Shown here piece by piece: positions 1 through 13,857 of a stretch of DNA of 64,000 nucleotides. A program made the position numbers and the translations under genes. This DNA comes from an uncultured Actinomycetota bacterium (lineage in GTDB: Bacteria > Actinomycetota > Actinomycetes > JAHEKZ01): the NCBI GenBank assembly GCA_963743915.1, contig CAVURN010000005.1:224001-288000 (forward strand), written 5' to 3'. The notes beneath the pieces were generated by a model. It had not been told where the DNA came from, did no database searches, and was given only the letters and a program-made list of their open reading frames with translations. Position 1 is the stretch's first letter. Every line of letters begins with the position of its first letter.

Positions 1-13
1 CCACCGTCGGCAT
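1..13 (-). CDS. 5' end of a gene running off the window (MPTV...), possibly a response regulator or CheB-type gene of the chemosensory cluster
   Basis: ATG at 13 preceded by GAGAGAGG RBS and a sigma-28-like promoter; only 4 codons visible, so the product is a guess from context. Confidence 0.3.
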
Positions 14-42
14 CAGGCGTCCTCTCTCTTCACTCCCCGAGG

Positions 43-71
43 ACTTCGGCGGAAATCGCTCGTGACTTAAC
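43..71 (-). promoter_or_regulatory. sigma-28 (FliA/WhiG)-like promoter
   Basis: minus strand GTTAAG-N15-GCCGAAGT, between the cheA stop and the next ATG. Confidence 0.65.
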
Positions 72-94
72 GGCCGGTCGCCGTCGGGAAGGCC

Positions 95-2305
95 TCAGCG
101 GCCCACCAGTCGACGGACGGTGTCCACCAGCTGGTTCTGGTCGAACTCGCTCTTGAGCAGGTAGGCGTTCGCGCCGGCGTCCAGACCGGCCCGCTTGTCC
201 GCCTCGTCCCCCCGGGAGGTCATGATCACCACGGGTACGGACTCCCATCCGCGCGTCCGACGGATCGTCCGGGTCAGGGTGAAGCCGTCCATGCCGGGCA
301 TCTCGACGTCGGAGAGCACGAGGTCGACGGGATCCCCACCCAGGCGGGCGGCGCCGTCGGCTCCGTCCACTGCCGTCACGACGTCGTAGCCGGCACCTTC
401 GAGGATCACCCGCTGGAGCTCACGCACGCCGATCGAGTCCTCGACCACCAGCACCCTTGCGCGTCCACCGCCTCGAGAGCCGGCGGCGGCCGGCGACGCC
501 GGGGCATCGGTTGCACTCTCGACCGGACGCGCCACCGGGGCATCGAGCGCCACGCCGCGCGCGTACTGCTCGATGGCCAGCTCGCGGACGTCGAGCAGCA
601 GCATGACACTGCCGTCGCTGTCGATGGTGCCCCCGCCGATGAAGGGAGGGCGTCCCAGGAAGCCGCCGAGGTCCTTGACCACGACCTCGAGCTCACCCTC
701 CAGGGCGTCGACGGCCCAGGCCAGCTGCTCGGAGGCGTTGCCGTAGCGGACGACGACGCCCACCTTCGTCTCCCGCTCGCTGTGCGCGCCGAGGGCCCGG
801 CCCAGGTCGGCCAACGGGATCGTCGATCCGTGCCGCACGAGGACCGGCGCGCCCGCGACGGTCGATGTCTCGACGTCGCCCAGGCTGATCGTCTCCACGA
901 CGTTCGTCACGGGGACGGCGTAGCGCTCCTCGCCGAGCCGTGCCACCAGGCACCGCATGACGCCAAGCGTCACCGGGAGGGTCATCACGAAGGTGGTGCC
1001 GACGCCGAACTCGCTCTCGATCTCCACCGTTCCGCCGAGGTCCTCGACCGCCGTGCGGACCACGTCGAGTCCCACGCCCCGTCCGGAGGTGGACGTGACC
1101 TCGTCGCGGGTGCTGAAGCCGGGCTGGAAGAGCACCGAGAAGAGCTGCTGTCCCGTCACCTGGCTGTCCGCGGGAAGCAGCCCACGGTCGATCGCGGAGA
1201 TCCGGAGCGCCTCCTGGTCGATGCCGTGGCCGTCGTCGGCCACCTCGATCACGATCGTCGAGCCGGCAGCTCGGGCCGAGACGGTGACGGTGGCCTGAGG
1301 CGGCTTGCCGGCAGCAGCGCGCACGTCGGGTGCGTCGCAGCCGTGGTCGACCGCATTCGTCACCAGGTGACGAAGGGCGTCCGCCACGCCGTCGAGCACG
1401 CGGGTGTCGAGCTCGACGTCCTCACCGACCAGCCGAAGCCGCACGTCCTTGCCAGTCTCGGTCGCCACCTCACGCACCAGCTGCGGGAACGCGGCCACCA
1501 CCCGACGGACCGGAACCATGGCCAGACCCATGGCGCCGTCGCGCACCTGGGCGAGACGGTTCTGCGCGTCCTCCATCGAGCCGCGCATGTCGCGCACAGC
1601 TGCCTGGAACTGGTCCCCGAGAGCCACCAGGGCGTGGATGTTCTCCGACACCTCTGGCGGAAGGGTGACATCGGTGGCCGTGGCCTGACGCAGCAGTCGC
1701 ACGACGCGGAGGTGCTCGGCCGACATCGCCGTCAGCTCCAGCACTCCACGTTCGACCCGTCGGGTCTCGAGCTCGGCCTCACCGACCACGTCCAGCAGGG
1801 CATGGACCCGGCGGACCGGGACCCGGACCGACTCACCCATCTTCGGCCGGTTGTCGACGGTGTCCGTCTCGGTGTCGTCCTCGACGACCGCAGCCCGCGG
1901 CACCTCGACCGGGTTCTCCCCGTCGAGAGCGCTCCCCAACGCGGACACGAGAGCCGCCAGGTCATCGTCGGCGATCGGACGCTCGGAGCCCGGGAGGCCG
2001 CGGCGGATGCCTTCGGCAGCCGCGAGCAGCAGGTCGACCAGGTCGCGTCGAGGGTCGAACCGGCCGTCCCGCACCGCGCCGAGGAGGTCCTCGGAGAGGT
2101 GGGCGACCTCGACGACACCCTCGAGACCGAGCATGCGTGCCGAACCCTTGACGGTGTGGGCGTCGCGGAAGAGAGCCGCGACCAGCTGCCGCGGCTGCGG
2201 GTGGCCCTCGAGCTTGAGAAGCCCGTCGCAGAGCGAAGCCAGACGGTCCTCGACTTCCTGCCGGAACGTCGCCACCAGCTCCGGGTCGTTGGCCCAGCTG
2301 CTCAT
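95..2305 (-). CDS. cheA: CheA-type histidine kinase with C-terminal receiver domain (Hpt-dimerisation-HATPase-CheW-REC; WspE/FrzE-like hybrid)
   Basis: Hpt [12 protein letters not shown]; [11 protein letters not shown]-box; DDGHG and [11 protein letters not shown]-boxes; CheW-like domain; [22 protein letters not shown] at 2305 overlaps (ATGA) the repaired stop of the upstream MCP. Confidence 0.92.
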
Positions 2306-4042
2306 GCGTCCACCTGCTCTCGATTGTCGTCGGTGGTTTTGAATTGGGCGATGGAGGAGCGACAGGTCGGCGGCGAGGGTGTTCAGCTCGGTCGCGGCGG
2401 CGGCGGCCTGCTTGGAGCCGACCGCGTACTGCCGGGACACATCAGCGACCTGACCCATCGCCGAGACCACCTGCTCCGACGCCGACCTTTGCTGCTGGGT
2501 CGCAATGGAAATCTCCTTGGCCGCAGTGGTCGTCTCATCGACCATCCCAGAGATCTTCTCCAACGCCCCCACCACATCCCGCGCCAACGCCGACCCCGCA
2601 TGCACCTGCCGCGACCCCTCCTCAGAGGCCACGATCGTCGCGTTCGTCTCCGCCTGGATCTGCGTCACGATCGACTGGATCTGCCCCGCCGACTCCTGCG
2701 ACCGCTCCGCCAACTTCCGGATCTCCGCCGCCACCACCGCAAACCCCCGACCATGCTCCCCCGCCCGAGCCGCCTCGATCGCCGCATTCAACGCCAACAA
2801 ATTCGTCTGATCAGCCAACTCATCAATCACCTGCAAAATCCGGCCGATCTCCTGACCCTTCTCCCCCAACCCCAACGCCCGCGACGCAATCACATCCACC
2901 CGAGCCGCGATCTGATCCATCGACTCCACCGACGCCGACACCGCCACCTGACCCTGCTCAGCAAACCCCAACGTCTCCGACGCGAACGCCGCCACCTGCT
3001 CCGCCGTCTCCGCGATCTGCGCCGCCGTCGCCGCCAACTCCTCAATCGTCGCGCTCGTCTCCGCCACCGCCGAGGACTGCTGCGACGCAGCAGCCGCCTG
3101 CTCCCGAGCCGCCACCAACACCTGAGACGCCGCCGCCCCAATCCGCTCCCCACCCGACCGCACCCCAGCCACCAACCCCCGCAACGACCCCAACGTGTGA
3201 TCCAGGGAGCCGGAGAGGGCGAGGATGTATTGGCTGCGCTCGAAGCCGAAGTCTGTTCCCTCGTCGAGGTCGGAGACCTCGACCCGCGCGGTGAGGTCAC
3301 CCTGGGAGGCCGCCTCGAGTGCGACAGACAGCTGGCGCACCTGGTCGACGAGGAGGGCCTGGTCCCAGCCGGTTCCCTCGGCCGTGTCGTAGAGGGTGCG
3401 GCTGACTCCACGGACGATCAGGAAGGCGGCGGGCAGACCGATGCTGAGGGCCACTACAAGGGTGAAGGTCTGCGACCCAGGTGCGGGGAGCCCTCCGACG
3501 GCGATCCACTGGCTGACCGCTGGCAACAGGGCGAGCAGTGCCGCCATCGCCCAGCCCGACGCGTAGACCAGGACCGTGCCGAGGTAGGCCGAGCCGACCA
3601 CGACAGGCAGCCACTCCGCGCTGGTCACGCCCCCCGTCCAGATAGTGGCAAGCGCCACCACGACAACCTGCGCCATGCCCAGCAGGCCGTCCCACCGGTC
3701 CGTTCGGGCGTAGGTGTGGTGCTCCCGGTAGGCGCGGACCGCCAGCAACGACGCGGCAACGGCGATCACCGCTCCGACCGTCCACACCAACCACAGCTGG
3801 GCCTGGATCGGCTCCTTCTCCGCGACGTGCCACAGGAAGCCGATGAGGACGCTGAACGAGACCAGACCCGTGTGCAGAGAGATCGTCTCGCCGACGTTGC
3901 GGCGACTGAAGCTGAGGGAGGCGCCCCCCGCCTTGGTCCGGTCGATCGCGTCCAGGACAGTGCTGACCGACGACTCACTAGACGGCCGTCCGGACGAGAC
4001 TGCACCCGGCGACGGGTCGAGCGGCGCGCTCGTCGTGCTCAC
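2302..4042 (-). CDS. methyl-accepting chemotaxis protein A (multi-TM sensor plus signalling domain); one extra base at ~2359 fuses it to cheA in the given sequence
   Basis: GTG at 4042 with AGGAGGAG RBS; hairpin-tip motif [40 protein letters not shown]; removing the extra base gives ...[19 protein letters not shown] ending at 2302. Confidence 0.88.
2328..3206. repeat. near-identical MCP signalling-domain repeat, copy A (GRINS-like skewed DNA)
   Basis: same sequence recurs at 4685, 6343, 8025 and 9759; + strand is strongly C/A-rich. Confidence 0.95.
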
Positions 4043-4116
4043 TGCTCCTCCTCGAGGCGTGCTGGGCCGCACTGGCTCAGCCCAGGCAGGGACGAGCCAC
4101 ACGGGTTCCTGATGTC

Positions 4117-4159
4117 AGATCGGCCCGAACCAGGCCCGGCTGTAGCCCGTTCGGGGGAC
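4117..4159 (-). promoter_or_regulatory. sigma-28-like promoter for mcpA-cheA with an upstream 20-bp operator-like box
   Basis: CTACAG-N15-GCCGATCT; 4140-4159 is identical to 9657-9676 (ctgtagcccgttcgggggac). Confidence 0.65.
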
Positions 4160-4205
4160 AACGGAAAGCGCCAGCGGGTGCCGGATCTGGCCTTACACTG
4201 GCCGC

Positions 4206-4643
4206 ATGGCGAGGACCCGCTACCCGCTCCTGGTTGCGGGCGCGGGCATGGCGCTGCTCTCGGCATGTCAATCCTCAGGCATCAACGATCAGGACGCTTT
4301 CCTTGCCGAGGTACAGCTCTGCCCGGCCACCGGACGACTCCCCCAGAACCGCACACCCACCTGTGAAGTGCCACCAGAAGGTTTGATCTCCCTTGGCCTT
4401 GACGCCTGCAGCTGGCTTCACGGCCAGCCATTGGCCCGTCTCAAGCCAGCGTCCCAGCCTTACTGGAAGGACCCCCACGACGTGCATAACGTGGCCAGCC
4501 AGTTTGCACGGCAAGAACGCACCACGGCGGCCGTGCCACTGCAGGACGCCGAACAGTCGAATGTCGCGTACTTCGCCTGGCGCCATCTGTGCCGGGACCT
4601 GGAGACCCGGTACAACTTCAACGTGCACGAATACTCCGACTGA
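4206..4643 (+). CDS. small putative lipoprotein (DUF732-like)
   Basis: lipobox LSAC; DAFLAEV...SLGLDACSWL pattern; TACACT -10 box 6 nt before ATG (leaderless). Confidence 0.6.
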   Translation: MARTRYPLLVAGAGMALLSACQSSGINDQDAFLAEVQLCPATGRLPQNRTPTCEVPPEGLISLGLDACSWLHGQPLARLKPASQPYWKDPHDVHNVASQFARQERTTAAVPLQDAEQSNVAYFAWRHLCRDLETRYNFNVHEYSD

Positions 4644-4684
4644 CCATCCCACGCGGCCCGGCGGAGTGGTGCGGGCGACGGATC

Positions 4685-5548
4685 TGGCTCAGGCGTCGGT
4701 GGTTTTGAATTGGGCGATGGAGGAGGACAGGTCGGCGGCGAGGGTGTTCAGCTCGGTCGCGGCGGCGGCGGCCTGCTTGGAGCCGACCGCGTACTGCCGG
4801 GACACATCAGCGACCTGACCCATCGCCGAGACCACCTGCTCCGACGCCGACCTTTGCTGCTGGGTCGCAATGGAAATCTCTTTGGCCGCAGTGGTCGTCT
4901 CATCGACCATCCCAGAGATCTTCTCCAACGCCCCCACCACATCCCGCGCCAACGCCGACCCCGCATGCACCTGCCGCGACCCCTCCTCAGAGGCCACGAT
5001 CGTCGCGTTCGTCTCCGCCTGGATCTGCGTCACGATCGACTGGATCTGCCCCGCCGACTCCTGCGACCGCTCCGCCAACTTCCGGATCTCCGCCGCCACC
5101 ACCGCAAACCCCCGACCATGCTCCCCCGCCCGAGCCGCCTCGATCGCCGCATTCAACGCCAACAAATTCGTCTGATCAGCCAACTCATCAATCACCTGCA
5201 AAATCCGGCCGATCTCCTGACCCTTCTCCCCCAACCCCAACGCCCGCGACGCAATCACATCCACCCGAGCCGCGATCTGATCCATCGACTCCACCGACGC
5301 CGACACCGCCACCTGACCCTGCTCAGCAAACCCCAACGTCTCCGACGCGAACGCCGCCACCTGCTCCGCCGTCTCCGCGATCTGCGCCGCCGTCGCCGCC
5401 AACTCCTCAATCGTCGCGCTCGTCTCCGCCACCGCCGAGGACTGCTGCGACGCAGCAGCCGCCTGCTCCCGAGCCGCCACCAACACCTGAGACGCCGCCG
5501 CCCCAATCCGCTCCCCACCCGACCGCACCCCAGCCACCAACCCCCGCA
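4685..5548. repeat. MCP signalling-domain repeat, copy B
   Basis: near-identical to the other four copies. Confidence 0.95.
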
Positions 5549-6248
5549 GGTGGCCGAGCGTTTCGTCGAGGGACCCACTCAGCTCCTGCACGAAGACGGG
5601 CGCGTCGGCATCCACCGTTCCCAGGGTCACCACGAGGTTTCCGCGGGAGACATCGGCCAAAGCTGACGAGAGCTCCTCCACCTTGGCGTTCACCACGTCA
5701 CGCTCGGCATTGGCCTCGTACCGAAGGTCGTACAGGTACGACGCTGACTGCTCCATGAACCACGTGCTGAGGGCCAGTCCCAGGGCCACCATCACCCCGA
5801 CCGGGATCGTCGTGGGCCCCCAGGTGTCGGTCACGAAGCCCGTCGACAGGAAGGCGAGCGCGAGTCCGACACTCATGAACCGCAGAGTCTTGGGCACGAA
5901 GGTGACGCCGAGAAAGGGGATGACCACGAAGTAGGGAACCCAGGCCACCCCAGCCGGCCCACCGGTCGTGGCCGTCAGCGCGGTGATCGCTCCGAGCTGG
6001 AGCCAGACGGTCGGCTGGTCCCAGATTCCGGTGGTCTCGATCGGCAGCTGCCGGAGCCAGGCACGCGCCGCGAAGGTGGAGGCGACGGCGCCGGTGACAC
6101 AGGAGAACACCCAGAGGGCAGCGAGAACCGGCCAGGCGGCGGCCTCAACGTCCAGGTACCGCACCGTGAGCAGCGCAGCCAGGCCCAGCAGCAGGACCAC
6201 GCCCACATGCAGGCACAAGGTCGACAGGAAGTCGCGGCGGGTGAACAC
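4689..6248 (-). CDS. methyl-accepting chemotaxis protein B
   Basis: intact 519-aa ORF; GAGGAG RBS; ~6 hydrophobic segments plus MCP signalling motif. Confidence 0.92.
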
Positions 6249-6299
6249 GGCACTCCTCGAGGTTCTGGGTCCGTGGGGATCTCCCAGTGGCCCAGTGAA

Positions 6300-6328
6300 G
6301 CGTCGACAGTTCGAGGACTGACCTGAAG
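6300..6328 (-). promoter_or_regulatory. sigma-28-like promoter for mcpB
   Basis: CTTCAG-N15-GTCGACGC. Confidence 0.5.
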
Positions 6329-6342
6329 ACCTGCCTCAGTGG

Positions 6343-7226
6343 TGGCTCAGGCGTCGGTGGTTTTGAATTGGGCGATGGAGGAGCGACAGGTCGGCGGCGA
6401 GGGTGTTCAGCTCGGTCGCGGCGGCGGCGGCCTGCTTGGAGCCGACCGCGTACTGCCGGGACACATCAGCGACCTGACCCATCGCCGAGACCACCTGCTC
6501 CGACGCCGACCTTTGCTGCTGGGTCGCAATGGAAATCTCTTTGGCCGCAGTGGTCGTCTCATCGACCATCCCAGAGATCTTCTCCAACGCCCCCACCACA
6601 TCCCGCGCCAACGCCGACCCCGCATGCACCTGCCGCGACCCCTCCTCAGAGGCCACGATCGTCGCGTTCGTCTCCGCCTGGATCTGCGTCACGATCGACT
6701 GGATCTGCCCCGCCGACTCCTGCGACCGCTCCGCCAACTTCCGGATCTCCGCCGCCACCACCGCAAACCCCCGACCATGCTCCCCCGCCCGAGCCGCCTC
6801 GATCGCCGCATTCAACGCCAACAAATTCGTCTGATCAGCCAACTCATCAATCACCTGCAAAATCCGGCCGATCTCCTGACCCTTCTCCCCCAACCCCAAC
6901 GCCCGCGACGCAATCACATCCACCCGAGCCGCGATCTGATCCATCGACTCCACCGACGCCGACACCGCCACCTGACCCTGCTCAGCAAACCCCAACGTCT
7001 CCGACGCGAACGCCGCCACCTGCTCCGCCGTCTCCGCGATCTGCGCCGCCGTCGCCGCCAACTCCTCAATCGTCGCGCTCGTCTCCGCCACCGCCGAGGA
7101 CTGCTGCGACGCAGCAGCCGCCTGCTCCCGAGCCGCCACCAACACCTGAGACGCCGCCGCCCCAATCCGCTCCCCACCCGACCGCACCCCAGCCACCAAC
7201 CCCCGCAACGACCCCAACGTGTGATC
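6343..7226. repeat. MCP signalling-domain repeat, copy C
   Basis: near-identical to the other copies; shares the stop codon and a few downstream bases with copy B. Confidence 0.95.
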
Positions 7227-7967
7227 GAACGACTGGGCGAGTCTCTCCACCGCGACCGCGTCGCCCTCGAGGGTCGAGAGCGCGACGGCGTGTCCCACCT
7301 CGGCGTCCAACCGGCCAGAAGCGGCCCGCTCCATCGCCGAGGACAGCTCCTCGACGCGAGTGTCCAGATGCGCGCGACTGCGGGCCAGGGTGTCGGCCTC
7401 GTCGTACAACGCGCGCGACAGTGTCCGGATCATCAGATAGCTGGTCGGGAGAACGGCACTCAGCGCCGCCGCCAGCAGGATGTCGAACCGGTCCGACGAG
7501 GCGGACATGAGGTACACCGCCCATGGCGACGCCAGCAGCACAAGAGCGACGTACCAGCGGAGCTCATGGACGAGGGCGCTTGCGAGGTAGGTGAGCGCCA
7601 CGAAGGAGAGGATCCACAAGGGGCTCTGGGCGCCGCCCGTCCAGGCCGCGCCCGCAACCACGGCCAGGGTTGCCGCGGCAGCCGTCGGACCGTCCCAGGG
7701 GTCGGTCTGGTCGTAGCCGTAGCCTCGACGCAGTGCCTGCAGGCTCAGCAGCGTGGTCGCCAGGGCCACCAGGATCTGCACACCCATCACGACAGCGATC
7801 TGCGGTGGCACGGTGCTGCCGGTGGCCCACACCCAGCCCCCGGTGAGGACCAGGACCCCGAGCACCAGACCCCAGTGGAGAGTGATGGTCTCGACGGCGT
7901 TGCGGACGGAGAACCGGACGGATACGTCGGGTTCTGTCTCGCGAGCTGCCGCTGGCGACGAGCTCAT
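6347..7967 (-). CDS. methyl-accepting chemotaxis protein C (extra base at ~6384 alters the last residues)
   Basis: ATG overlaps the mcpD stop (ATGA); multi-TM head; MCP motif; repaired end ...FKTTDA* is identical to mcpB. Confidence 0.9.
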
Positions 7968-9598
7968 GGCCCGGCGCCCCCTGACACCCCCGCCGTCTGG
8001 TTCTCAACAGGTACGTCATGCGCCTTGAATTGGGCGATGGAGGAGGACAGGTCGGCGGCGAGGGTGTTCAGCTCGGTCGCGGCGGCGGCGGCCTGCTTGG
8101 AGCCGACCGCGTACTGCCGGGACACATCAGCGACCTGACCCATCGCCGAGACCACCTGCTCCGACGCCGACCTTTGCTGCTGGGTCGCAATGGAAATCTC
8201 CTTGGCCGCAGTGGTCGTCTCATCGACCATCCCAGAGATCTTCTCCAACGCCCCCACCACATCCCGCGCCAACGCCGACCCCGCATGCACCTGCCGCGAC
8301 CCCTCCTCAGAGGCCACGATCGTCGCGTTCGTCTCCGCCTGGATCTGCGTCACGATCGACTGGATCTGCCCCGCCGACTCCTGCGACCGCTCCGCCAACT
8401 TCCGGATCTCCGCCGCCACCACCGCAAACCCCCGACCATGCTCCCCCGCCCGAGCCGCCTCGATCGCCGCATTCAACGCCAACAAATTCGTCTGATCAGC
8501 CAACTCATCAATCACCTGCAAAATCCGGCCGATCTCCTGACCCTTCTCCCCCAACCCCAACGCCCGCGACGCAATCACATCCACCCGAGCCGCGATCTGA
8601 TCCATCGACTCCACCGACGCCGACACCGCCACCTGACCCTGCTCAGCAAACCCCAACGTCTCCGACGCGAACGCCGCCACCTGCTCAGCCGTCTCCGCGA
8701 TCTGCGCCGCCGTCGCCGCCAACTCCTCAATCGTCGCGCTCGTCTCCGCCACCGCCGAGGACTGCTGCGACGCAGCAGCCGCCTGCTCCCGAGCCGCCAC
8801 CAACACCTGAGACGCCGCCGCCCCAATCCGCTCCCCACCCGACCGCACCCCAGCCACCAACCCCCGCAACGACCCCAACGTGTGATCCAGGCGTCCAGCC
8901 AGGGATGCCGTCTGGTCGCCCTGCAGGGGCAGCTGGGCCATGGCCACCTCGAGGTCGCCCGCTGCGACGACGTCGGCAGCCCCCGACAAGGTGGCGACGT
9001 CGGACTCGACCGCCTTCCGCGTCGTGTGTGCCTCGTGCTGGGCGCGCAGCATGCTCATGGTCATCAGGTCGGTGACGGTGGCCAAGATGATGGCGAGCAC
9101 GCACAGCCCCACGCCGCGTGCTGCTCCCTCGCCGGACCAGGTGTCTGTCACGAGACCGACGATGCCGATCGCCCCGGCGATGAAGAAGCCAAGGAACCGG
9201 GCCACGAACCCGGCGAAGACGCCGCTGGCGTAGGTGATCATGACCAGCGACAACACAGGCACCGGAGTTTCCAGCCCGCCCGCGAACGCACCCATCGTCA
9301 AAGACACCCCGAGCGTCACCGCGGTCGTCGGACGGTCCCACCGGTCCGTCTCTTCGAAGGAGTCCCCACGACGGACCGCGCGTGTCGACAGCCAGCACAC
9401 CAGGGCGACGTTGGTGAGCAGGACGGCATACAGGCCGACCAGGGCCGGCACCTGAAGCACGATGTGCGGTTCGAAGACCGCCGTGGCCCAGACCAGGACG
9501 GGCGCCGCCACCAGCACCCCGAGGTGGGACGCGATGGTCTCGGTGCGAGACCGCGCCACATAGGGGATCTCGCTGTAGTCCACGTCGTCGGCGAACAC
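7964..9598 (-). CDS. methyl-accepting chemotaxis protein D
   Basis: intact 544-aa ORF; GGAGGAG RBS; multi-TM head plus MCP motif. Confidence 0.92.
8025..8891. repeat. MCP signalling-domain repeat, copy D
   Basis: near-identical to the other copies. Confidence 0.95.
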
Positions 9599-9633
9599 CG
9601 GCGCTCCTCCATCTTGATCGGGTGATCAGTACC

Positions 9634-9676
9634 TCTTCGACCAGCCCTGAAGGTGCCTGTAGCCCGTTCGGGGGAC
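9634..9676 (-). promoter_or_regulatory. sigma-28-like promoter for mcpD-mcpC with the upstream 20-bp box
   Basis: CTACAG-N15-GTCGAAGA; 20-bp box identical to 4140-4159. Confidence 0.6.
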
Positions 9677-9728
9677 TGCCCACGATCTGTCACATCGCGA
9701 TCCGGGTCTTCTCCGGCACCGCTCGCGC

Positions 9729-11333
9729 TCAGACCTTGGAACGCTCCAAGGGGGGTTCGGCGTCGGTGGTTTTGAATTGGGCGATGGAGGAGCGACAGGT
9801 CGGCGGCGAGGGTGTTCAGCTCGGTCGCGGCGGCGGCGGCCTGCTTGGAGCCGACCGCGTACTGCCGGGACACATCAGCGACCTGACCCATCGCCGAGAC
9901 CACCTGCTCCGACGCCGACCTTTGCTGCTGGGTCGCAATGGAAATCTCTTTGGCCGCAGTGGTCGTCTCATCGACCATCCCAGAGATCTTCTCCAACGCC
10001 CCCACCACATCCCGCGCCAACGCCGACCCCGCATGCACCTGCCGCGACCCCTCCTCAGAGGCCACGATCGTCGCGTTCGTCTCCGCCTGGATCTGCGTCA
10101 CGATCGACTGGATCTGCCCCGCCGACTCCTGCGACCGCTCCGCCAACTTCCGGATCTCCGCCGCCACCACCGCAAACCCCCGACCATGCTCCCCCGCCCG
10201 AGCCGCCTCGATCGCCGCATTCAACGCCAACAAATTCGTCTGATCAGCCAACTCATCAATCACCTGCAAAATCCGGCCGATCTCCTGACCCTTCTCCCCC
10301 AACCCCAACGCCCGCGACGCAATCACATCCACCCGAGCCGCGATCTGATCCATCGACTCCACCGACGCCGACACCGCCACCTGACCCTGCTCAGCAAACC
10401 CCAACGTCTCCGACGCGAACGCCGCCACCTGCTCAGCCGTCTCCGCGATCTGCGCCGCCGTCGCCGCCAACTCCTCAATCGTCGCGCTCGTCTCCGCCAC
10501 CGCCGAGGACTGCTGCGACGCAGCAGCCGCCTGCTCCCGAGCCGCCACCAACACCTGAGACGCCGCCGCCCCAATCCGCTCCCCACCCGACCGCACCCCA
10601 GCCACCAACCCCCGCAACGACCCCACGGTTCGGTCGAGTGCGTGACCAAGCTCGTCGAGCTGCTCGGCCCGTGCTCCCACGTCGTCGCGCAGCGTCCAGG
10701 TGTTCGCCTCACGGTGACCGTCAGGTCGCCCTCGGCGGTCTCGACGAGCACGCGGGAGAGCTCCTCCACCCGGCTGCTGACCGCCGCCTCGAGCTGTTCG
10801 GCGGTGAAGCGCTCGGCATACAGGTCCGAGGCATAGAAGTAGACGACACCGACCAGGAAGGTCAGCGTGGCGCCGACGAGCAGACCGGTCTGCCAGTGGT
10901 CGGTCCAGGTGTCGGAGTACCAGCCGGCGATTCCGACCGAGGCACCCACCAGCAGGAGCCCACCGCGCAGCGAGTAGCCCAGCTCCACCGACATCCCCAG
11001 GTAGGGCGCCCACAGGAAAGCGAGAAAGAGGGTCGGCGCCGCCAGCCCGCCGGTGACGGCCACCAGGACGGCGACGAGCAGGATGCTCACGTACGTGGTG
11101 ACGCTCTCCCAGCGCATCGTGTCGACGAGTGACTGCCCCTGGTGAACGGCGCGCACCGCGAGTCCGGTGACCGACAGCGCGTTCGCCAGCAGCAGGCCGA
11201 CCGTGACGGCAGCACCCAGCCGGTGGGCGTCGGTGTCGATCGTCGACCACGCCATCCAGGTCGTCAGGACGGCCGCCAGCAGGACGATCCAGTGCTGGCC
11301 ACTCGACTCGATGCTGTTACGACGGGTGTACAC
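9729..11333 (-). CDS. methyl-accepting chemotaxis protein E (apparent frameshifts at ~10709, ~10687 and ~9793)
   Basis: N-terminal TM head in ORF 10323..11333, signalling domain in ORF 9316..11250; removing three single bases gives ...[32 protein letters not shown]...[15 protein letters not shown]. Confidence 0.85.
9759..10625. repeat. MCP signalling-domain repeat, copy E
   Basis: near-identical to the other copies. Confidence 0.95.
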
Positions 11334-11362
11334 CGCGCCTCCTCGTGGGGTGAAGGGACGGG

Positions 11363-11869
11363 TCAGACAGCCGCTCGACGCGCTGACGGAAGCTGGTCGC
11401 GCAGACGCAGGACCGCCTCGGTCGCGAGCAGCGCGACCGGACCGTCGACGTCCACGACCCCCTGCACGAGGGGTGCGATACCGGTCGCGATGGTCGCGGG
11501 GATCGGCTCGAGCGCGTTGGGGTCACAGTCGAGCAGGCCCGGCACCATGTCCGCGACGAGACCGACCTCGACGTCGTCCTCGGACAGCACGACGAGGCGG
11601 GCACTCGTGGGCATCGGCGACAGCGGTGCCCCCACAAGCGGCCGCAGGTCGACCACGGGCAGGACGCGCCCGCGCCAGTTCACGACGCCGGAGAGCCAAG
11701 CCGGGGCGCCGGGAACGCGGGTCACGACGGGGACCGGGACCACCTCGGCGACGCTGGCCATGTCCACGGCATAACGGGCTCCGGCGAAGCGCAGGATCAC
11801 CCCGCCGATCGGCGCGACGTGCTCGTCGGCCTCGGCGGCGTCGGCAAGGCTGGTCGGTGCTGACTCCAC
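11363..11869 (-). CDS. cheW: chemotaxis coupling protein CheW
   Basis: RYAVDMASVAEVV..VTRVPGAPAWLSGVVNWRGRVLPVVDL CheW signature; GTG start 7 nt after the -10 box. Confidence 0.9.
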   Translation of the reverse strand: MESAPTSLADAAEADEHVAPIGGVILRFAGARYAVDMASVAEVVPVPVVTRVPGAPAWLSGVVNWRGRVLPVVDLRPLVGAPLSPMPTSARLVVLSEDDVEVGLVADMVPGLLDCDPNALEPIPATIATGIAPLVQGVVDVDGPVALLATEAVLRLRDQLPSARRAAV

Positions 11870-11876
11870 GGACAGA

Positions 11877-11905
11877 CCATCGGCCGTCCGGGTGACGACC
11901 TGAAG
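11877..11905 (-). promoter_or_regulatory. sigma-28-like promoter heading the cheW-MCP cluster (probably leaderless), overlapped by a BldM/WhiI-like box
   Basis: CTTCAG-N15-GCCGATGG; + strand TCGGCCGTCCGGGTGA at 11880-11895. Confidence 0.65.
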
Positions 11906-11913
11906 TGCCGAGA

Positions 11914-13857
11914 TCAGGAGCGCGCGGGGGCCTTCCCGGGCTCCCGGAGGTCGATCACCTGATCCGTCGAGGCCCCCTGGGCCTCGAGGAGGATGTCCGT
12001 GATCTCCCGGCCGATCAGCTCCTCGCGCTCGAGCAGGGCGTCGCGGAGGGCCTCGACGAGGTGGGTGTTCTCCTCGAGGAGCGCCTTGACGACGACCTTT
12101 TGCTCCTGGAGGAGGTCCTCGACAGCGGCTCGGCCGGATCCGTCGGCCAGCACGCGTCCGACGATGTTGCTGTCGTTGAAGGCGCTGTTCTGCACCGCCG
12201 CGAACGAGATCAGCGAGTCGAGCATCCCGCACGAGCCCACCATCTCGGCTGCGACGTTCGTGGCATACAGGAGGTCTCCCCCCGGGCCGGTCGACACGTC
12301 ACCGAAGAAGATCTCCTCCGAGCACTGACCGCCGAGGGCGATCTGGATGAGGGCCAGCATCTCGGAGCGTGACCTCGTGTAGACCTCTTCGGCGTCACCG
12401 TGCGCCAACATGCCGAGCGCCGAACGCCGCTTGACGATGGTGAGGACCTCCAGGCGGCGCTCCGGCGCCACCAGGAAGGCAGCCGTCGCATGGCCGGCCT
12501 CATGAGTGGCGATGAGCCGTCGTTCGTGGTCGGTGTAGGACACGGGCTGCCCCATGCCGACCTCTTCGACCAGCCGCGCCCGCTCGACGTCCTTCCACGT
12601 CATCGCCGAGTCACCCCGGCGAACCGCGTTCACCAGCGCCTCGTCGAGCAGGTGCTCGATCATCACCGGCGTGTACCCCTGGGTGGCACCGGCGAGCGAG
12701 TCCCGCCTGTCGTCGTCGTCCAGCTCCGCGTTGTGCGACTTGAGGGCCAGGTAGTGGTCGATGATCTCGCGGCGCCCGTTCTTGGTGGGCAGCTCGAAGG
12801 TGAGCCGGCGGTCGAAACGTCCAGGACGCAGGAGCGCGGGGTCGAGGTTGTCCGCGCGGTTGGTCGCGGCGATGAGCAGGATGTTGGTCGGCGGCGGCTC
12901 CGGACGCTGCATCTGCCGGTGAGCGGGCAGGTACAGGTTGGCCCTGTCCACCACCTTGGTCATCAGCTTCTGCCAGCCGGTCGGCTCGTCGAACGACTGC
13001 ATCTGCACGAGCAGCTCGTTGACCACACCACCCACGCCCTCGCTCACCACCGACGCGTTGGTCACCAGCCCGGCCGGCGTCCCGTAGCTGGAAGGCAGCG
13101 ACGTCAGGCCCCCGCACGCCTGGATGCCGAGCGACGCCAGCGACTGCGGCATCGAGGTCGCCGACAGACCCCCTCGGGCCATCGCGATGGCGTCGATCTC
13201 CTCGATGAAGCCGATCGCACCACCTTCCGATCGGGCCACCTTGCGCAGCTGCTTGAAGTACGAGCGGATCTTCCGGGCGGTCGCCCCGTAGTACATCGAC
13301 TGGAAGGACGTGGCGGACACGAACATGAAGGGCACGCCGGCCTCGCGAGCCATGGCCTTGGCGAGGAAGGTCTTGCCGGTGCCGGGGGCCCCTTCGAAGA
13401 GGAGTCCCCGCCGCGGCGTCCCGCCCATGTCGTTGGCGAAGGTGCGGTGGGCCAGGAACAGGTTGAGCGAGCGGACGACCTCCTCCTTGACCGGATCGAT
13501 GCCCTTGACGTCGTCCAGCCGGGTGGCGATCTGCTCGGGCCGGTACAGGACGTGTGGCGAGCGGCCCGCGCCGACCGTGGTTCCGACCAGGATCAGCAGC
13601 AGCGCACCGAAGAAGAGGATGGGAACGAGCAGGTACGCGTCGATGCTCGGCAGGCCCCAGCCCACCGGGTCGCCGGTGACGATCCGGTACCACAGGTAGG
13701 CGGCGGGGATCCCGAGCATCACCGCGAGGCTGCGCAGGCGGCGGCGACGGCGCTGCTCACGGGTGGCACCGACGTCGGCGTCGCGTGCGGTCAGCACCGT
13801 GGCGCTTCCCAGGCCCGTCGGCTTCTCCACCAGCTGATCACGCTCGGTGTCGGACAC
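11914..13857 (-). CDS. FtsH-like membrane AAA+ zinc metalloprotease (M41)
   Basis: two N-terminal TM segments; Walker A GAPGTGKT; Walker B FIEEID; SRH TNRADNLDPALLRPGRFDR; HEAGH zinc motif. Confidence 0.88.
   Translation of the reverse strand: MSDTERDQLVEKPTGLGSATVLTARDADVGATREQRRRRRLRSLAVMLGIPAAYLWYRIVTGDPVGWGLPSIDAYLLVPILFFGALLLILVGTTVGAGRSPHVLYRPEQIATRLDDVKGIDPVKEEVVRSLNLFLAHRTFANDMGGTPRRGLLFEGAPGTGKTFLAKAMAREAGVPFMFVSATSFQSMYYGATARKIRSYFKQLRKVARSEGGAIGFIEEIDAIAMARGGLSATSMPQSLASLGIQACGGLTSLPSSYGTPAGLVTNASVVSEGVGGVVNELLVQMQSFDEPTGWQKLMTKVVDRANLYLPAHRQMQRPEPPPTNILLIAATNRADNLDPALLRPGRFDRRLTFELPTKNGRREIIDHYLALKSHNAELDDDDRRDSLAGATQGYTPVMIEHLLDEALVNAVRRGDSAMTWKDVERARLVEEVGMGQPVSYTDHERRLIATHEAGHATAAFLVAPERRLEVLTIVKRRSALGMLAHGDAEEVYTRSRSEMLALIQIALGGQCSEEIFFGDVSTGPGGDLLYATNVAAEMVGSCGMLDSLISFAAVQNSAFNDSNIVGRVLADGSGRAAVEDLLQEQKVVVKALLEENTHLVEALRDALLEREELIGREITDILLEAQGASTDQVIDLREPGKAPARS

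Follow-up and report, generated by a model that had tools for sequence, protein, structure and literature searches.

Five tandem genes for methyl-accepting chemotaxis proteins (MCPs) carry different sensor heads on one common signaling module of ~860 bp, and this module is probably a GRINS-type element (genetic repeats with intense nucleotide skews) residing in a chemoreceptor array. The genes lie between cheW and cheA in the window, by which we mean the whole stretch of 64,000 nt that was analyzed, and the gene order on the minus strand is cheW-mcp5-mcp4-mcp3-mcp2-mcp1-cheA. The features, with their positions in the window, are as follows.

95..2305 (-): hybrid cheA; Pfam domains Hpt, HATPase_c, CheW, and receiver
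2302..4102 (-): mcp1, the cheA-adjacent chemoreceptor (MCPsignal match, translation)
2336..3203 (-): repeat copy 1, signaling-domain module, 868 bp (five-copy alignment and BLAST against the genome)
2440..3206 (-): skewed core of copy 1, third codon positions A1 C25 G191 T39
roughly 3204-4102 (-): sensor head of mcp1 itself
4206..4643 (+): small ORF between mcp1 and mcp2, outside the repeat
4689..6248 (-): mcp2, with an in-frame C-terminus (translation, Pfam, comparison with relatives)
4701..5548 (-): repeat copy 2, 848 bp
6336..7967 (-): mcp3 (translation, Pfam)
6360..7227 (-): repeat copy 3, 868 bp
7964..9598 (-): mcp4 (translation, Pfam)
8021..8888 (-): repeat copy 4, 868 bp
9769..10630 (-): repeat copy 5, 862 bp
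10631..11414 (-): head of mcp5, orthologous to heads in the relatives G006, G003, and G019
11363..12232 (-): cheW, upstream of the array (Pfam CheW)

The first four MCPs match Pfam PF00015 (MCPsignal) over the full length of the domain with 147.9-148.2 bits (cut-off 34.6). The whole-protein scan covered mcp1-4; mcp5 has a frame break, its head and module being in different frames as assembled, with the shift near 10640-10710. The modules are free of stop codons, and their protein is presumably functional. The gene cheA adjoins mcp1 on the downstream side, and in relatives the mcp1 stop overlaps the cheA start, as judged by comparison of C-termini. The upstream border of copy 2 falls 20 nt short of the borders of copies 1, 3, and 4. 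No Pfam family was found for the small plus-strand ORF, and there are no Rfam RNA families in positions 1-12000 of the window. Six RNA runs each contained just a small part of the stretch (0.05-0.16).

Synonymous skew inside the repeated module

The original prediction was that the coding strand is rich in G and T inside the repeat, and base counts bear this out. On the plus strand, 2440-3206 holds C359 G155 A143 T110, which corresponds on the coding (minus) strand to a GC skew of +0.393 and a TA skew of +0.134. Two hand counts offered with the prediction (plus strand, C37 G9 A11 T3 at 3121-3180 and C30 G6 A14 T10 at 2821-2880) are exact. When the window is divided into 300-nt bins, five blocks have GC skew of -0.23 to -0.49 (about 2400-3300, 4800-5700, 6600-7200, 8100-9000, and 9900-10800), and all remaining bins lie between -0.19 and +0.16. 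The sliding-window check likewise places the modules far above the genome background: they are the top five by absolute GC skew of 11,659 750-nt windows in the 2.9-Mb genome, for which the median is 0.035 and the 99th percentile 0.138.

The skew of the module is synonymous and goes beyond what the amino acid composition yields. In the skewed core of copy 1 (256 codons), GCG makes up 43 of 54 Ala codons (genome 39%), TTG 16 of 17 Leu codons (genome 3.9%), and GAT all 8 Asp codons (genome 7.8%); the counts are 15 of 21 for GGG (genome 23%), 20 of 23 for GTG (genome 42%), and 7 of 17 for ATT (genome 1.8%), the genome reference being 985 long ORFs with high GC3. The codon bias that had been claimed for the coding strand holds. 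By codon position, the GC skew of the module is +0.53, -0.43, and +0.77, and the TA skew at third positions reaches +0.95. When the protein was back-translated with the codon usage of the genome (5000 draws), the GC skew was 0.059 ± 0.023 (maximum 0.138) and the TA skew -0.138 ± 0.030; the observed values lie above these by z = 14.5 and 9.2, respectively.

Along the genes, GC3 skew stays at ~0 through the heads, rises sharply to +0.8/+0.9 where the repeat begins on its upstream side, and drops to 0 or below in its last windows. It had been anticipated that the heads, cheA, and the last ~100 bp (2330-2440) would use normal codons, and they do: the 300-nt bins of cheA have GC skew of -0.02 to -0.09, and 2330-2440 contains C28 G49 on the plus strand. 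Homogenization alone does not impose skew, because the final ~100 bp (2336-2440) are homogenized yet unskewed. Synonymous sites have been rewritten inside the homogenized tract only, with G/T replacing C/A on the coding strand and the protein kept.

Homogenization and the distribution of skew

The five modules (848-868 bp) differ at only 3 positions over ~850 bp in the alignment, and BLAST identity among the copies is 99.8-100%. All four combinations of two SNPs (2516 and 3002 in copy 1 numbering) are represented in the array, so exchange tracts must end inside the module. Past the module border, nucleotide identity falls to 56-66%, and the sensor heads of the array share 29-41% protein identity with one another. 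Modules of one genome are 96.4-99.5% identical (averaged over copies, seven genomes), versus 77-97% for modules of different genomes. The heads find their best matches in other genomes, some of them from different genera: the mcp1 head, for instance, pairs with G004_4, G010_1, G003_1, G006_4, and G019_4, and that of mcp4 with G003_2, G004_3, and G010_2 at 70-74%. Modules homogenized within a genome, with heads orthologous across genera, constitute concerted evolution. Repeated nonreciprocal exchange (gene conversion) keeps the module near identical while the heads evolve as ordinary orthologs, and the SNP mosaic, the within- and between-genome identities, and the orthologous heads all bear out the proposed link to gene conversion. 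Our literature search found no paper that joins methyl-accepting chemotaxis, gene conversion, and concerted evolution.

Copy number and skew go together in relatives. We compared 62 related loci, 58 of them with a match of at least 200 aa; several of these are the same places as in the compared genomes, so that the two sets overlap, and most records are metagenome-assembled genomes. Multicopy loci are skewed in 10 of 10 cases (29 of 29 copies), with GC3 skew of 0.55-0.94. Single-copy loci with good flanks (at least 3 kb on both sides, n = 31) have GC3 skew of at most 0.02 in 29 cases; one well-flanked single-copy ortholog (L057) is weakly skewed (0.25). Neighboring lineages carry unskewed orthologs at an amino acid identity of 75-77%.

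Skew also tracks the extent of the homogenized tract gene by gene. In two congeners (G004 and G010), genes 2 and 3 have 270 extra nucleotides in common (96-100% identity, then 49-62%), and exactly the windows over this stretch carry GC3 skew of +0.4 to +0.9 in genes 2 and 3; in genes 1 and 4 the same windows are mostly ~0 (range -0.2 to +0.5). A second MCP subfamily gives a comparable picture. In G006, its members “x” and MCP6 are 90.0% identical in nucleotides (83.9% in amino acids) and skewed (0.67 and 0.69); in G003, they are 68.4% identical (68.6% in amino acids) and unskewed (0.11 and 0.03). A genome from another family (G027) has two modules 68 kb apart that are 88.0% identical in nucleotides and 82.3% in amino acids, with skew of 0.42 and 0.48.

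The skewed state has changed at least twice. An AU test rejected a single clade of 21 skewed rows (delta lnL 97.6, p 4.8e-5), the skewed group having been defined by the trait, but after a FastTree tree had been seen. From unskewed MCP6 in G003 to skewed MCP6 in G006 (87% amino acid identity), we counted C>G 37, C>T 32, and A>G 22, versus G>C 7 and T>C 4 for the reverse classes. When two unskewed orthologs are compared, the changes are symmetric. Independent contrasts are all concordant, but the pairs are few (two on well-supported branches, four on all branches; sign test p 0.5).

Within the genome that carries the window, three other MCP signaling domains, which share 50-58% of their amino acids with the module, show GC3 skew values of +0.02, -0.03, and 0.00. 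All 25 of the most skewed 750-nt windows fall in repeat families, and the skewed families comprise the MCP modules, MCP6, an rve transposase, a DUF222-HNH pair, and a pair of B12-binding proteins (99.8% identical). The skew of the MCP modules is always G/T-rich on the coding strand; that of the DUF222-HNH genes is the opposite, their coding strand being the C-rich one. Coding repeats of Laminin_G, RTX, and Big_9/cadherin type in the same genome (82-94% identity) are unskewed. MCP6 (C5:295234-296073), which is 61% identical to the module in amino acids and 77% in nucleotides, is strongly skewed (0.61), and we found no repeat partner of >80% identity for it in the same genome. Putative MCP6 orthologs are skewed in 6 of 13 genomes.

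Competing explanations and possible mechanism

The skew would stem from a strand-asymmetric process at the DNA level, coupled to recombination between repeats; biased heteroduplex handling and mutational bias are candidate processes. Alternatively, the direction could be reversed, with conversion favored in the tract by the skew itself, a proposal made by Nivina et al. in the available part of their text (PMC8256042). As regards function, a single CheA/CheW would face the same module for kinase control and adaptation on every receptor, so that new heads could be added without retuning.

Several other accounts have to be weighed against recombination-coupled skew. Selection on mRNA or translation, in which rare, C-poor codons slow the long coiled-coil hairpin or shape the mRNA and conversion merely copies the result, would fit the favored TTG, GAT, ATT, and GGG codons, which are rare in the genome, the constant G/T-richness of MCP modules on the coding strand, and the skew of single-copy MCP6. 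We nevertheless regard it as unlikely, given the normal codons in the three other MCP signaling domains and in 29 of the 31 well-flanked single-copy orthologs, the extension of skew into the linker region along repeat borders specific to one gene pair (G004 and G010), and the skew of unrelated repeat families, including one with a C-rich coding strand. It could also be supposed that the skew simply mirrors the composition of an Ala/Gly/Val/Glu-rich signaling domain. Positions 1 and 2 do have a small positive GC skew (0.10 versus 0.02-0.08 in the three other MCP domains), and Gly and Val are slightly enriched, but the back-translated protein refutes this account, and paralogs and orthologs of similar composition have GC3 skew of ~0; we give it practically no credence. 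The refutation disposes of amino acid composition as a full explanation, the possibility that the original prediction had named as fatal to it.

Codon usage unlike that of the rest of the genome, with an abrupt change at the module border, might suggest foreign DNA, acquired horizontally from a donor with other codon usage and then duplicated. However, the GC content of the module (0.67) is near that of the genome (0.69-0.70), its proteins are placed by the tree among those from relatives, and the unskewed orthologs noted above reside in neighboring lineages. A codon usage that puts 75% G and 10% C at third positions throughout a genome is not known to us, which also counts against a foreign source, and we consider such a source very improbable. 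We would say the same of strand asymmetry from transcription or replication, for example, deamination of the nontemplate strand in a highly expressed operon: coding-strand C>T and A>G changes are indeed frequent, but C>G transversions match C>T changes in frequency, the equally oriented heads, cheA, and cheW are unskewed, and the borders of skew match those of repeats rather than transcription units. An assembly or polishing artefact, whether behind the copies' identity or behind the skew, is extremely improbable. Most of the genomes are metagenome-assembled and one repeat indel is unsupported by short-read contigs; however, the same architecture and skew recur in many separate assemblies, contigs from four of four public runs carry the repeat, with word depth rising on entry (which does not give a copy number), and skew at synonymous sites cannot arise from polishing.

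We also considered G-quadruplexes as a trigger of recombination and found the case unconvincing: there is one coding-strand motif per module, whereas MCP6, the corrinoid pair, and the copies of the transposase have none. The motif density of the genome is 0.042 per kb per strand.

A more specific version of recombination-coupled skew involves NucS/EndoMS. In the available part of a published review, this noncanonical mismatch repair enzyme of Actinobacteria prefers G-T, G-G, and T-T mismatches, hardly touches A-C, C-C, and A-A, and limits recombination between diverged repeats (PMC8228993). The genome has a nucS gene. To our knowledge, some phyla with reported GRINS lack NucS. The mismatch preference described for the enzyme and the skew of the module lie on the same keto-versus-amino axis (G,T versus A,C). 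Going by that published specificity, the skew could conceivably be a footprint of NucS/EndoMS policing recombination intermediates, although we rate this as doubtful. Heteroduplexes of diverged copies would be aborted or tolerated depending on the strand with the keto base, and repeated conversion would ratchet G/T alleles onto one strand. If this were true, chemoreceptor arrays would offer a compact natural setting in which a GRINS mechanism could be tested, because the skewed state has changed at least twice, skewed singletons exist, and pair-specific borders are visible.

Relation to GRINS and other known systems

GRINS are defined operationally as duplicated regions of >500 bp and >80% DNA identity with mean absolute GC skew and mean absolute TA skew both >0.15 in 150-nt windows with a step of 30, according to the available part of the primary paper (Nivina et al. 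2021; PMC8256042). The five copies (848-868 bp, 99.8-100% identity) exceed the length and identity limits, and their mean GC skew is 0.355-0.358 (window background 0.077). Their mean TA skew is 0.114-0.118 with our own borders and 0.101-0.119 with the BLAST borders, and so falls below 0.15; the window background is 0.132. Orthologous arrays of relatives pass the TA-skew cut-off in 10 of 12 cases tested. The module is best worded as “GRINS-like,” because the copies in the window fail the TA-skew cut-off while most of the relatives’ arrays pass it. The GRINS reading as first put forward stands with regard to repeat length, GC skew, third-position bias, and gene conversion, and falls short on TA skew. 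The correlation of GC and TA skew is r = 0.60-0.63 in the five copies; in GRINS, it is reported as 0.70 inside and 0.09 outside (PMC8256042, available part). Between 15 skewed and 39 unskewed loci, Gly (+1.4 percentage points), Val (+1.0), and Thr (-1.7) shift in the direction expected for GRINS, and Gln (+0.8) shifts against it.

As far as the available part of the GRINS paper (PMC8256042) describes them, GRINS and the module have much in common. Both are coding repeats of >500 bp, near identical within a locus and diverged between related loci; both have an intense GC skew that goes along with TA skew and peaks at third codon positions, and may have in common small shifts to Gly and Val and away from Thr; and in both there is a link to gene conversion and there are single-copy skewed regions. 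The transposase and HNH endonuclease repeats of this genome belong to classes that the paper names for GRINS (section 10). The differences concern the hosts (chemoreceptors of an uncultured, small-genome actinomycete here, biosynthetic megasynthases of Streptomyces in that paper), the sign of the skew (one sign over the whole module here, abrupt sign changes there), and the outcome of conversion, in that function is conserved here (one signaling module for all receptors), whereas the paper stresses product diversification. We infer that the same process is acting on chemoreceptors. GRINS are already stated to occur in many phyla and gene families (PMC8256042, abstract and section 10), so what is new is the chemoreceptor setting and not the type of element. 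“Chemotaxis” is absent as a word from the main text of that paper, the supplements of which may list chemoreceptors. Our search on GRINS nucleotide skews returned only matches on PKS or NRPS, and no paper on GRINS and chemotaxis was found among the matches listed, all of which dealt with eukaryotic cell biology.

Identical signaling domains on divergent dCache sensor domains have been described for the paralogous chemoreceptors Tlp2, Tlp3, and Tlp4 of Campylobacter jejuni (PMC9769880, PMC6433261; available parts). Both systems put different heads on one identical cytoplasmic signaling domain, but Campylobacter belongs to another phylum and its genes are dispersed, whereas those here are in tandem. 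In this comparison by description, the available parts of the two papers mention no nucleotide skew or recoding. For chemotaxis, the locus shows an actinobacterial lineage keeping one signaling module on many heads, like Campylobacter, with the addition of a strong codon signature. The frequent TTG, GAT, ATT, and GGG codons of the module, rare elsewhere in the genome, may lower the rate of translation.

GRINS are documented in essentially one primary paper, and such patterns have so far been reported mainly from genes for antibiotic synthesis. The array is a small, easily compared added case. The gene array is conserved across several genera, and neighboring lineages have unskewed single-copy orthologs. 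State changes, a subfamily skewed only where it is homogenized, and a pair-specific border at which, in one gene pair, skew ends exactly at the end of the extra common sequence provide handles on whether skew comes before or after conversion.

Modules of this kind matter for annotation, in that their codon usage can make them look foreign, short-read assemblies can break at them, and they can draw consensus errors. An apparent MCP1-CheA fusion ORF (95..4102, 1335 aa), which arises from a single additional base in copies 1, 3, and 5, was rejected as a probable consensus error. No contig from the four runs has the window’s version across 2358-2364, bearing in mind that contigs can drop rare variants. 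Every contig spanning 2358-2364 is one base shorter (four of four runs), and contigs entering from the unique cheA side end at 2357-2361.

The chemoreceptor array and its recoded module

Within its first 12 kb, the window contains cheW, five chemoreceptor (MCP) genes, and cheA, all on the minus strand. Each MCP gene has its own sensor head (29%–41% protein identity among heads), and all five share, as their 3′ end, a signalling module of 848–868 bp, the copies of which differ at 3 positions in total over their shared core. Upstream of the module border, nucleotide identity is down to 56%–66%. No Rfam families were found in positions 1–12000.

Features of the chemoreceptor array
95..2305, minus strand, cheA (Hpt, HATPase_c, CheW, and receiver domains)
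2336-3203, minus strand, module copy 1
4206..4643, plus strand, ORF of 145 aa between mcp1 and mcp2, interrupting the array, without a Pfam family
4701-5548, minus strand, module copy 2
6360-7227, minus strand, module copy 3
8021-8888, minus strand, module copy 4
9769-10630, minus strand, module copy 5
11363..12232, minus strand, cheW

The hand counts of bases behind the original prediction of intense skew in the core of copy 1 (2440–3206) were exact on recount. In 300-nt bins, the five modules have a plus-strand GC skew of −0.23 to −0.49, with the remainder of the window within −0.19 to +0.16, and of 11,659 windows (750 nt each) taken across the 2.92-Mb genome, they are the top five by skew. 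Within 2440–3206, coding-strand GC skew is +0.53, −0.43, and +0.77 at codon positions 1, 2, and 3, and the third positions comprise 1 A, 25 C, 191 G, and 39 T. As predicted, codon choice departs strongly from that of the genome: GAT is used at 8 of 8 sites (genome 7.8%), TTG for 16 of 17 Leu codons (3.9%), ATT at 7 of 17 sites (1.8%), GGG at 15 of 21 (23%), and GCG at 43 of 54 (39%). Overall, the core has a coding-strand GC skew of +0.393 and a TA skew of +0.134; 5000 replicate back-translations of the same protein using genome codon usage gave 0.059±0.023 (maximum 0.138) and −0.138±0.030, respectively. Because these fall far short, the skew is not explained by amino-acid composition, the alternative that the prediction had itself raised.

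GC3 skew (GC skew at third codon positions, coding strand) is ~0 in the heads, jumps to +0.8/+0.9 at the upstream border of the repeat, and fades to 0 across the final ~35 codons, in agreement with the normal codons noted in the heads and the repeat's final ~100 bp. In the window's genome, this last part (2336–2440) uses ordinary C-ending codons; skew extends as far as the module end in two congeners, G004 and G006, and the window genome's modules are less skewed overall than theirs (0.66 vs. 0.77–0.94).

Some details of the array may be affected by assembly. Copy 1 has one extra base near 2360 (2355–2365), as do copies 3 and 5 at the same position; copies 2 and 4 and all relatives are without it. 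The final ~15 codons are thereby frameshifted, and mcp1 comes to lie in frame with cheA (ORF 95..4102, 1335 aa); all relatives are in frame at the C-terminus (...DLR[A/S]SIAQFK...). Contigs spanning the site were all one base shorter in four of four public runs, and the window's version was found in none. Thus, the fusion ORF was rejected, and both it and the extra base are probably a consensus error where copies differ. In addition, the mcp5 head, orthologous to heads in the congeners G006 (65%) and G003 (64%) and in another genus of the family (G019, 47%), does not share a reading frame with its module as assembled (10640–10710). This gene is either a pseudogene with a still-homogenised module or a second assembly error.

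Homogenisation and copy number in relatives

Tandem arrays of 2–5 MCPs with near-identical modules also occur in four congeners (G003, G004, G006, G010) and in members of the family's other genera (G017, G018, G019). Mean module identity is 96.4%–99.5% within a genome versus 77%–97% between genomes. The heads have their best matches in other genomes and genera; therefore, the array is old and homogenisation is confined to the module. Two SNPs are found in each of the four possible combinations among the five window copies, and the copies vary slightly in their repeat borders; exchange tracts therefore end within the module. The G018 array (L037, G018:C3:170500-184500) shows up as numerous partial matches to the module, in various frames, with only one intact copy; it either carries many frameshifts or was poorly assembled.

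We surveyed 62 loci from genomes of 185,579 species, 58 of which matched over 200 aa or more (L105, L110, L111, and L112 were left out). All 10 multi-copy loci are skewed, in 29 of 29 copies (GC3 skew 0.55–0.94). Of the 31 single-copy loci flanked on each side by at least 3 kb, 29 have GC3 skew of no more than 0.02; in this survey, skew accompanies repetition. The exceptions are L059 (0.81), which is the broken G018 array and is surrounded by partial copies, and L057 (0.25). Six of 17 single matches near an end of the available DNA are skewed (0.38–0.92), as expected if repeats break assemblies. It should be noted that six survey loci coincide with genomes of the array comparison, so the two sets overlap.

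The best IQ-TREE tree of the 62 module proteins requires six changes of skew state, a minimum of two is forced by the well-supported branches, and monophyly of the 21 skewed rows is rejected (AU test, p 4.8e-5). There are two independent contrasts on supported branches, or four on all branches, all concordant and too few for significance. Genes 2 and 3 of G004, and likewise of G010, have an extra 270 nt in common upstream of the shared module (96%–100% identity, then 49%–62%), and GC3 skew is +0.4 to +0.9 in exactly the three windows of this stretch; for the corresponding windows of genes 1 and 4, values are mostly ~0.

MCP6 and other skewed sequences

The genome encodes nine MCP signalling domains. 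MCP7, MCP8, and MCP9 (50%–58% protein identity to the module) have GC3 skews of +0.02, −0.03, and 0.00, with skew at positions 1+2 similar to that of the module. MCP6 (C5:295234-296073, within locus L120, G000:C5:294500-297600, where G000 is the window's own genome) lies 7 kb past the window end and has a large extracellular head. Its signalling domain (61% aa and 77% nt identity to the module) is single-copy, yet has a GC3 skew of 0.61. Putative orthologues within the genus (84%–90% protein identity) are skewed in six of 13 genomes (0.38–0.69) and unskewed in seven (0.03–0.12). From an unskewed to a skewed orthologue, synonymous differences are C>G 37, C>T 32, and A>G 22 versus G>C 7 and T>C 4; differences between two unskewed orthologues are symmetric. 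On the coding strand, recoding runs from amino (A, C) to keto (G, T) bases and is not simple deamination. Amino-acid content shifts slightly with the skew (Gly +1.4, Val +1.0, Thr −1.7 points), with Gln (+0.8) moving in the opposite direction.

A diverged array member, "x", of G006 shares 90.0% nt but only 83.9% aa identity with the MCP6 of that genome, both being skewed; the corresponding two genes of G003 are 68% identical to each other and unskewed. G027, which belongs to a different family, has two modules separated by 68 kb (88.0% nt, 82.3% aa identity), both of them skewed.

Using an equivalent of the GRINS pipeline, with BLAST in place of bowtie2, we found 17 regions of the genome to be duplicated over at least 500 bp with at least 80% identity. 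Besides the five modules, strong skew marks the following.

Skewed repeats outside the array
L114:456-1121 (minus strand) and L115:502-1170 (plus strand), pair of genes for B12-binding corrinoid proteins, 316 kb apart in inverted orientation
L116, L117, and L121, rve-transposase copies, strongly skewed
L118 and L119, DUF222-HNH pair, strongly skewed

The corrinoid pair (99.8% identity over 656 bp) matches the MCP modules in mean absolute GC skew (0.35–0.38) and passes both GRINS thresholds. The DUF222-HNH genes are C-rich on the coding strand, opposite to the modules, and the Laminin_G, RTX, and Big_9/cadherin domain repeats of the genome are without skew. All 25 of the most skewed 750-nt windows fall in skewed repeat families or MCP6. 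A G-quadruplex-type motif (four G runs, coding strand) occurs once at the equivalent site in every module (2856–2880, minus strand, in copy 1) and is mostly absent from MCP6 and other skewed repeats.

Comparison with GRINS and a possible cause

GRINS (genetic repeats in which nucleotide skews are intense) are defined in PMC8256042 by length, identity, GC skew, and TA skew (0.15). Like GRINS as described there, the window copies lie within the limits on the first three, and their GC and TA skews are correlated (r 0.60–0.63) and concentrated at third positions; unlike GRINS, they fall below the TA-skew cut-off (0.10–0.12 vs. 0.15). Of the arrays of relatives, 10 of 12 pass this cut-off, and the fitting term for the window module is GRINS-like.

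The simple model, that conversion makes skew, is at odds with the repeat's final ~100 bp, which are homogenised yet unskewed, with MCP6, which is skewed without a partner, and with the unskewed repeats elsewhere in the genome. NucS is present in this genome; according to PMC8228993, it prefers G-T, G-G, and T-T mismatches and limits recombination between diverged sequences. As a speculative lead, these properties could make the two strands asymmetric in keto and amino bases during conversion.

GRINS are spread over many phyla and families of genes according to PMC8256042, which names transposases, integrases, phages, and endonucleases; the word "chemotaxis" is absent from its main text. In their architecture of divergent heads on one signalling domain, the window receptors resemble Tlp2, Tlp3, and Tlp4 of Campylobacter jejuni, whose signalling domains are described as identical (PMC9769880).
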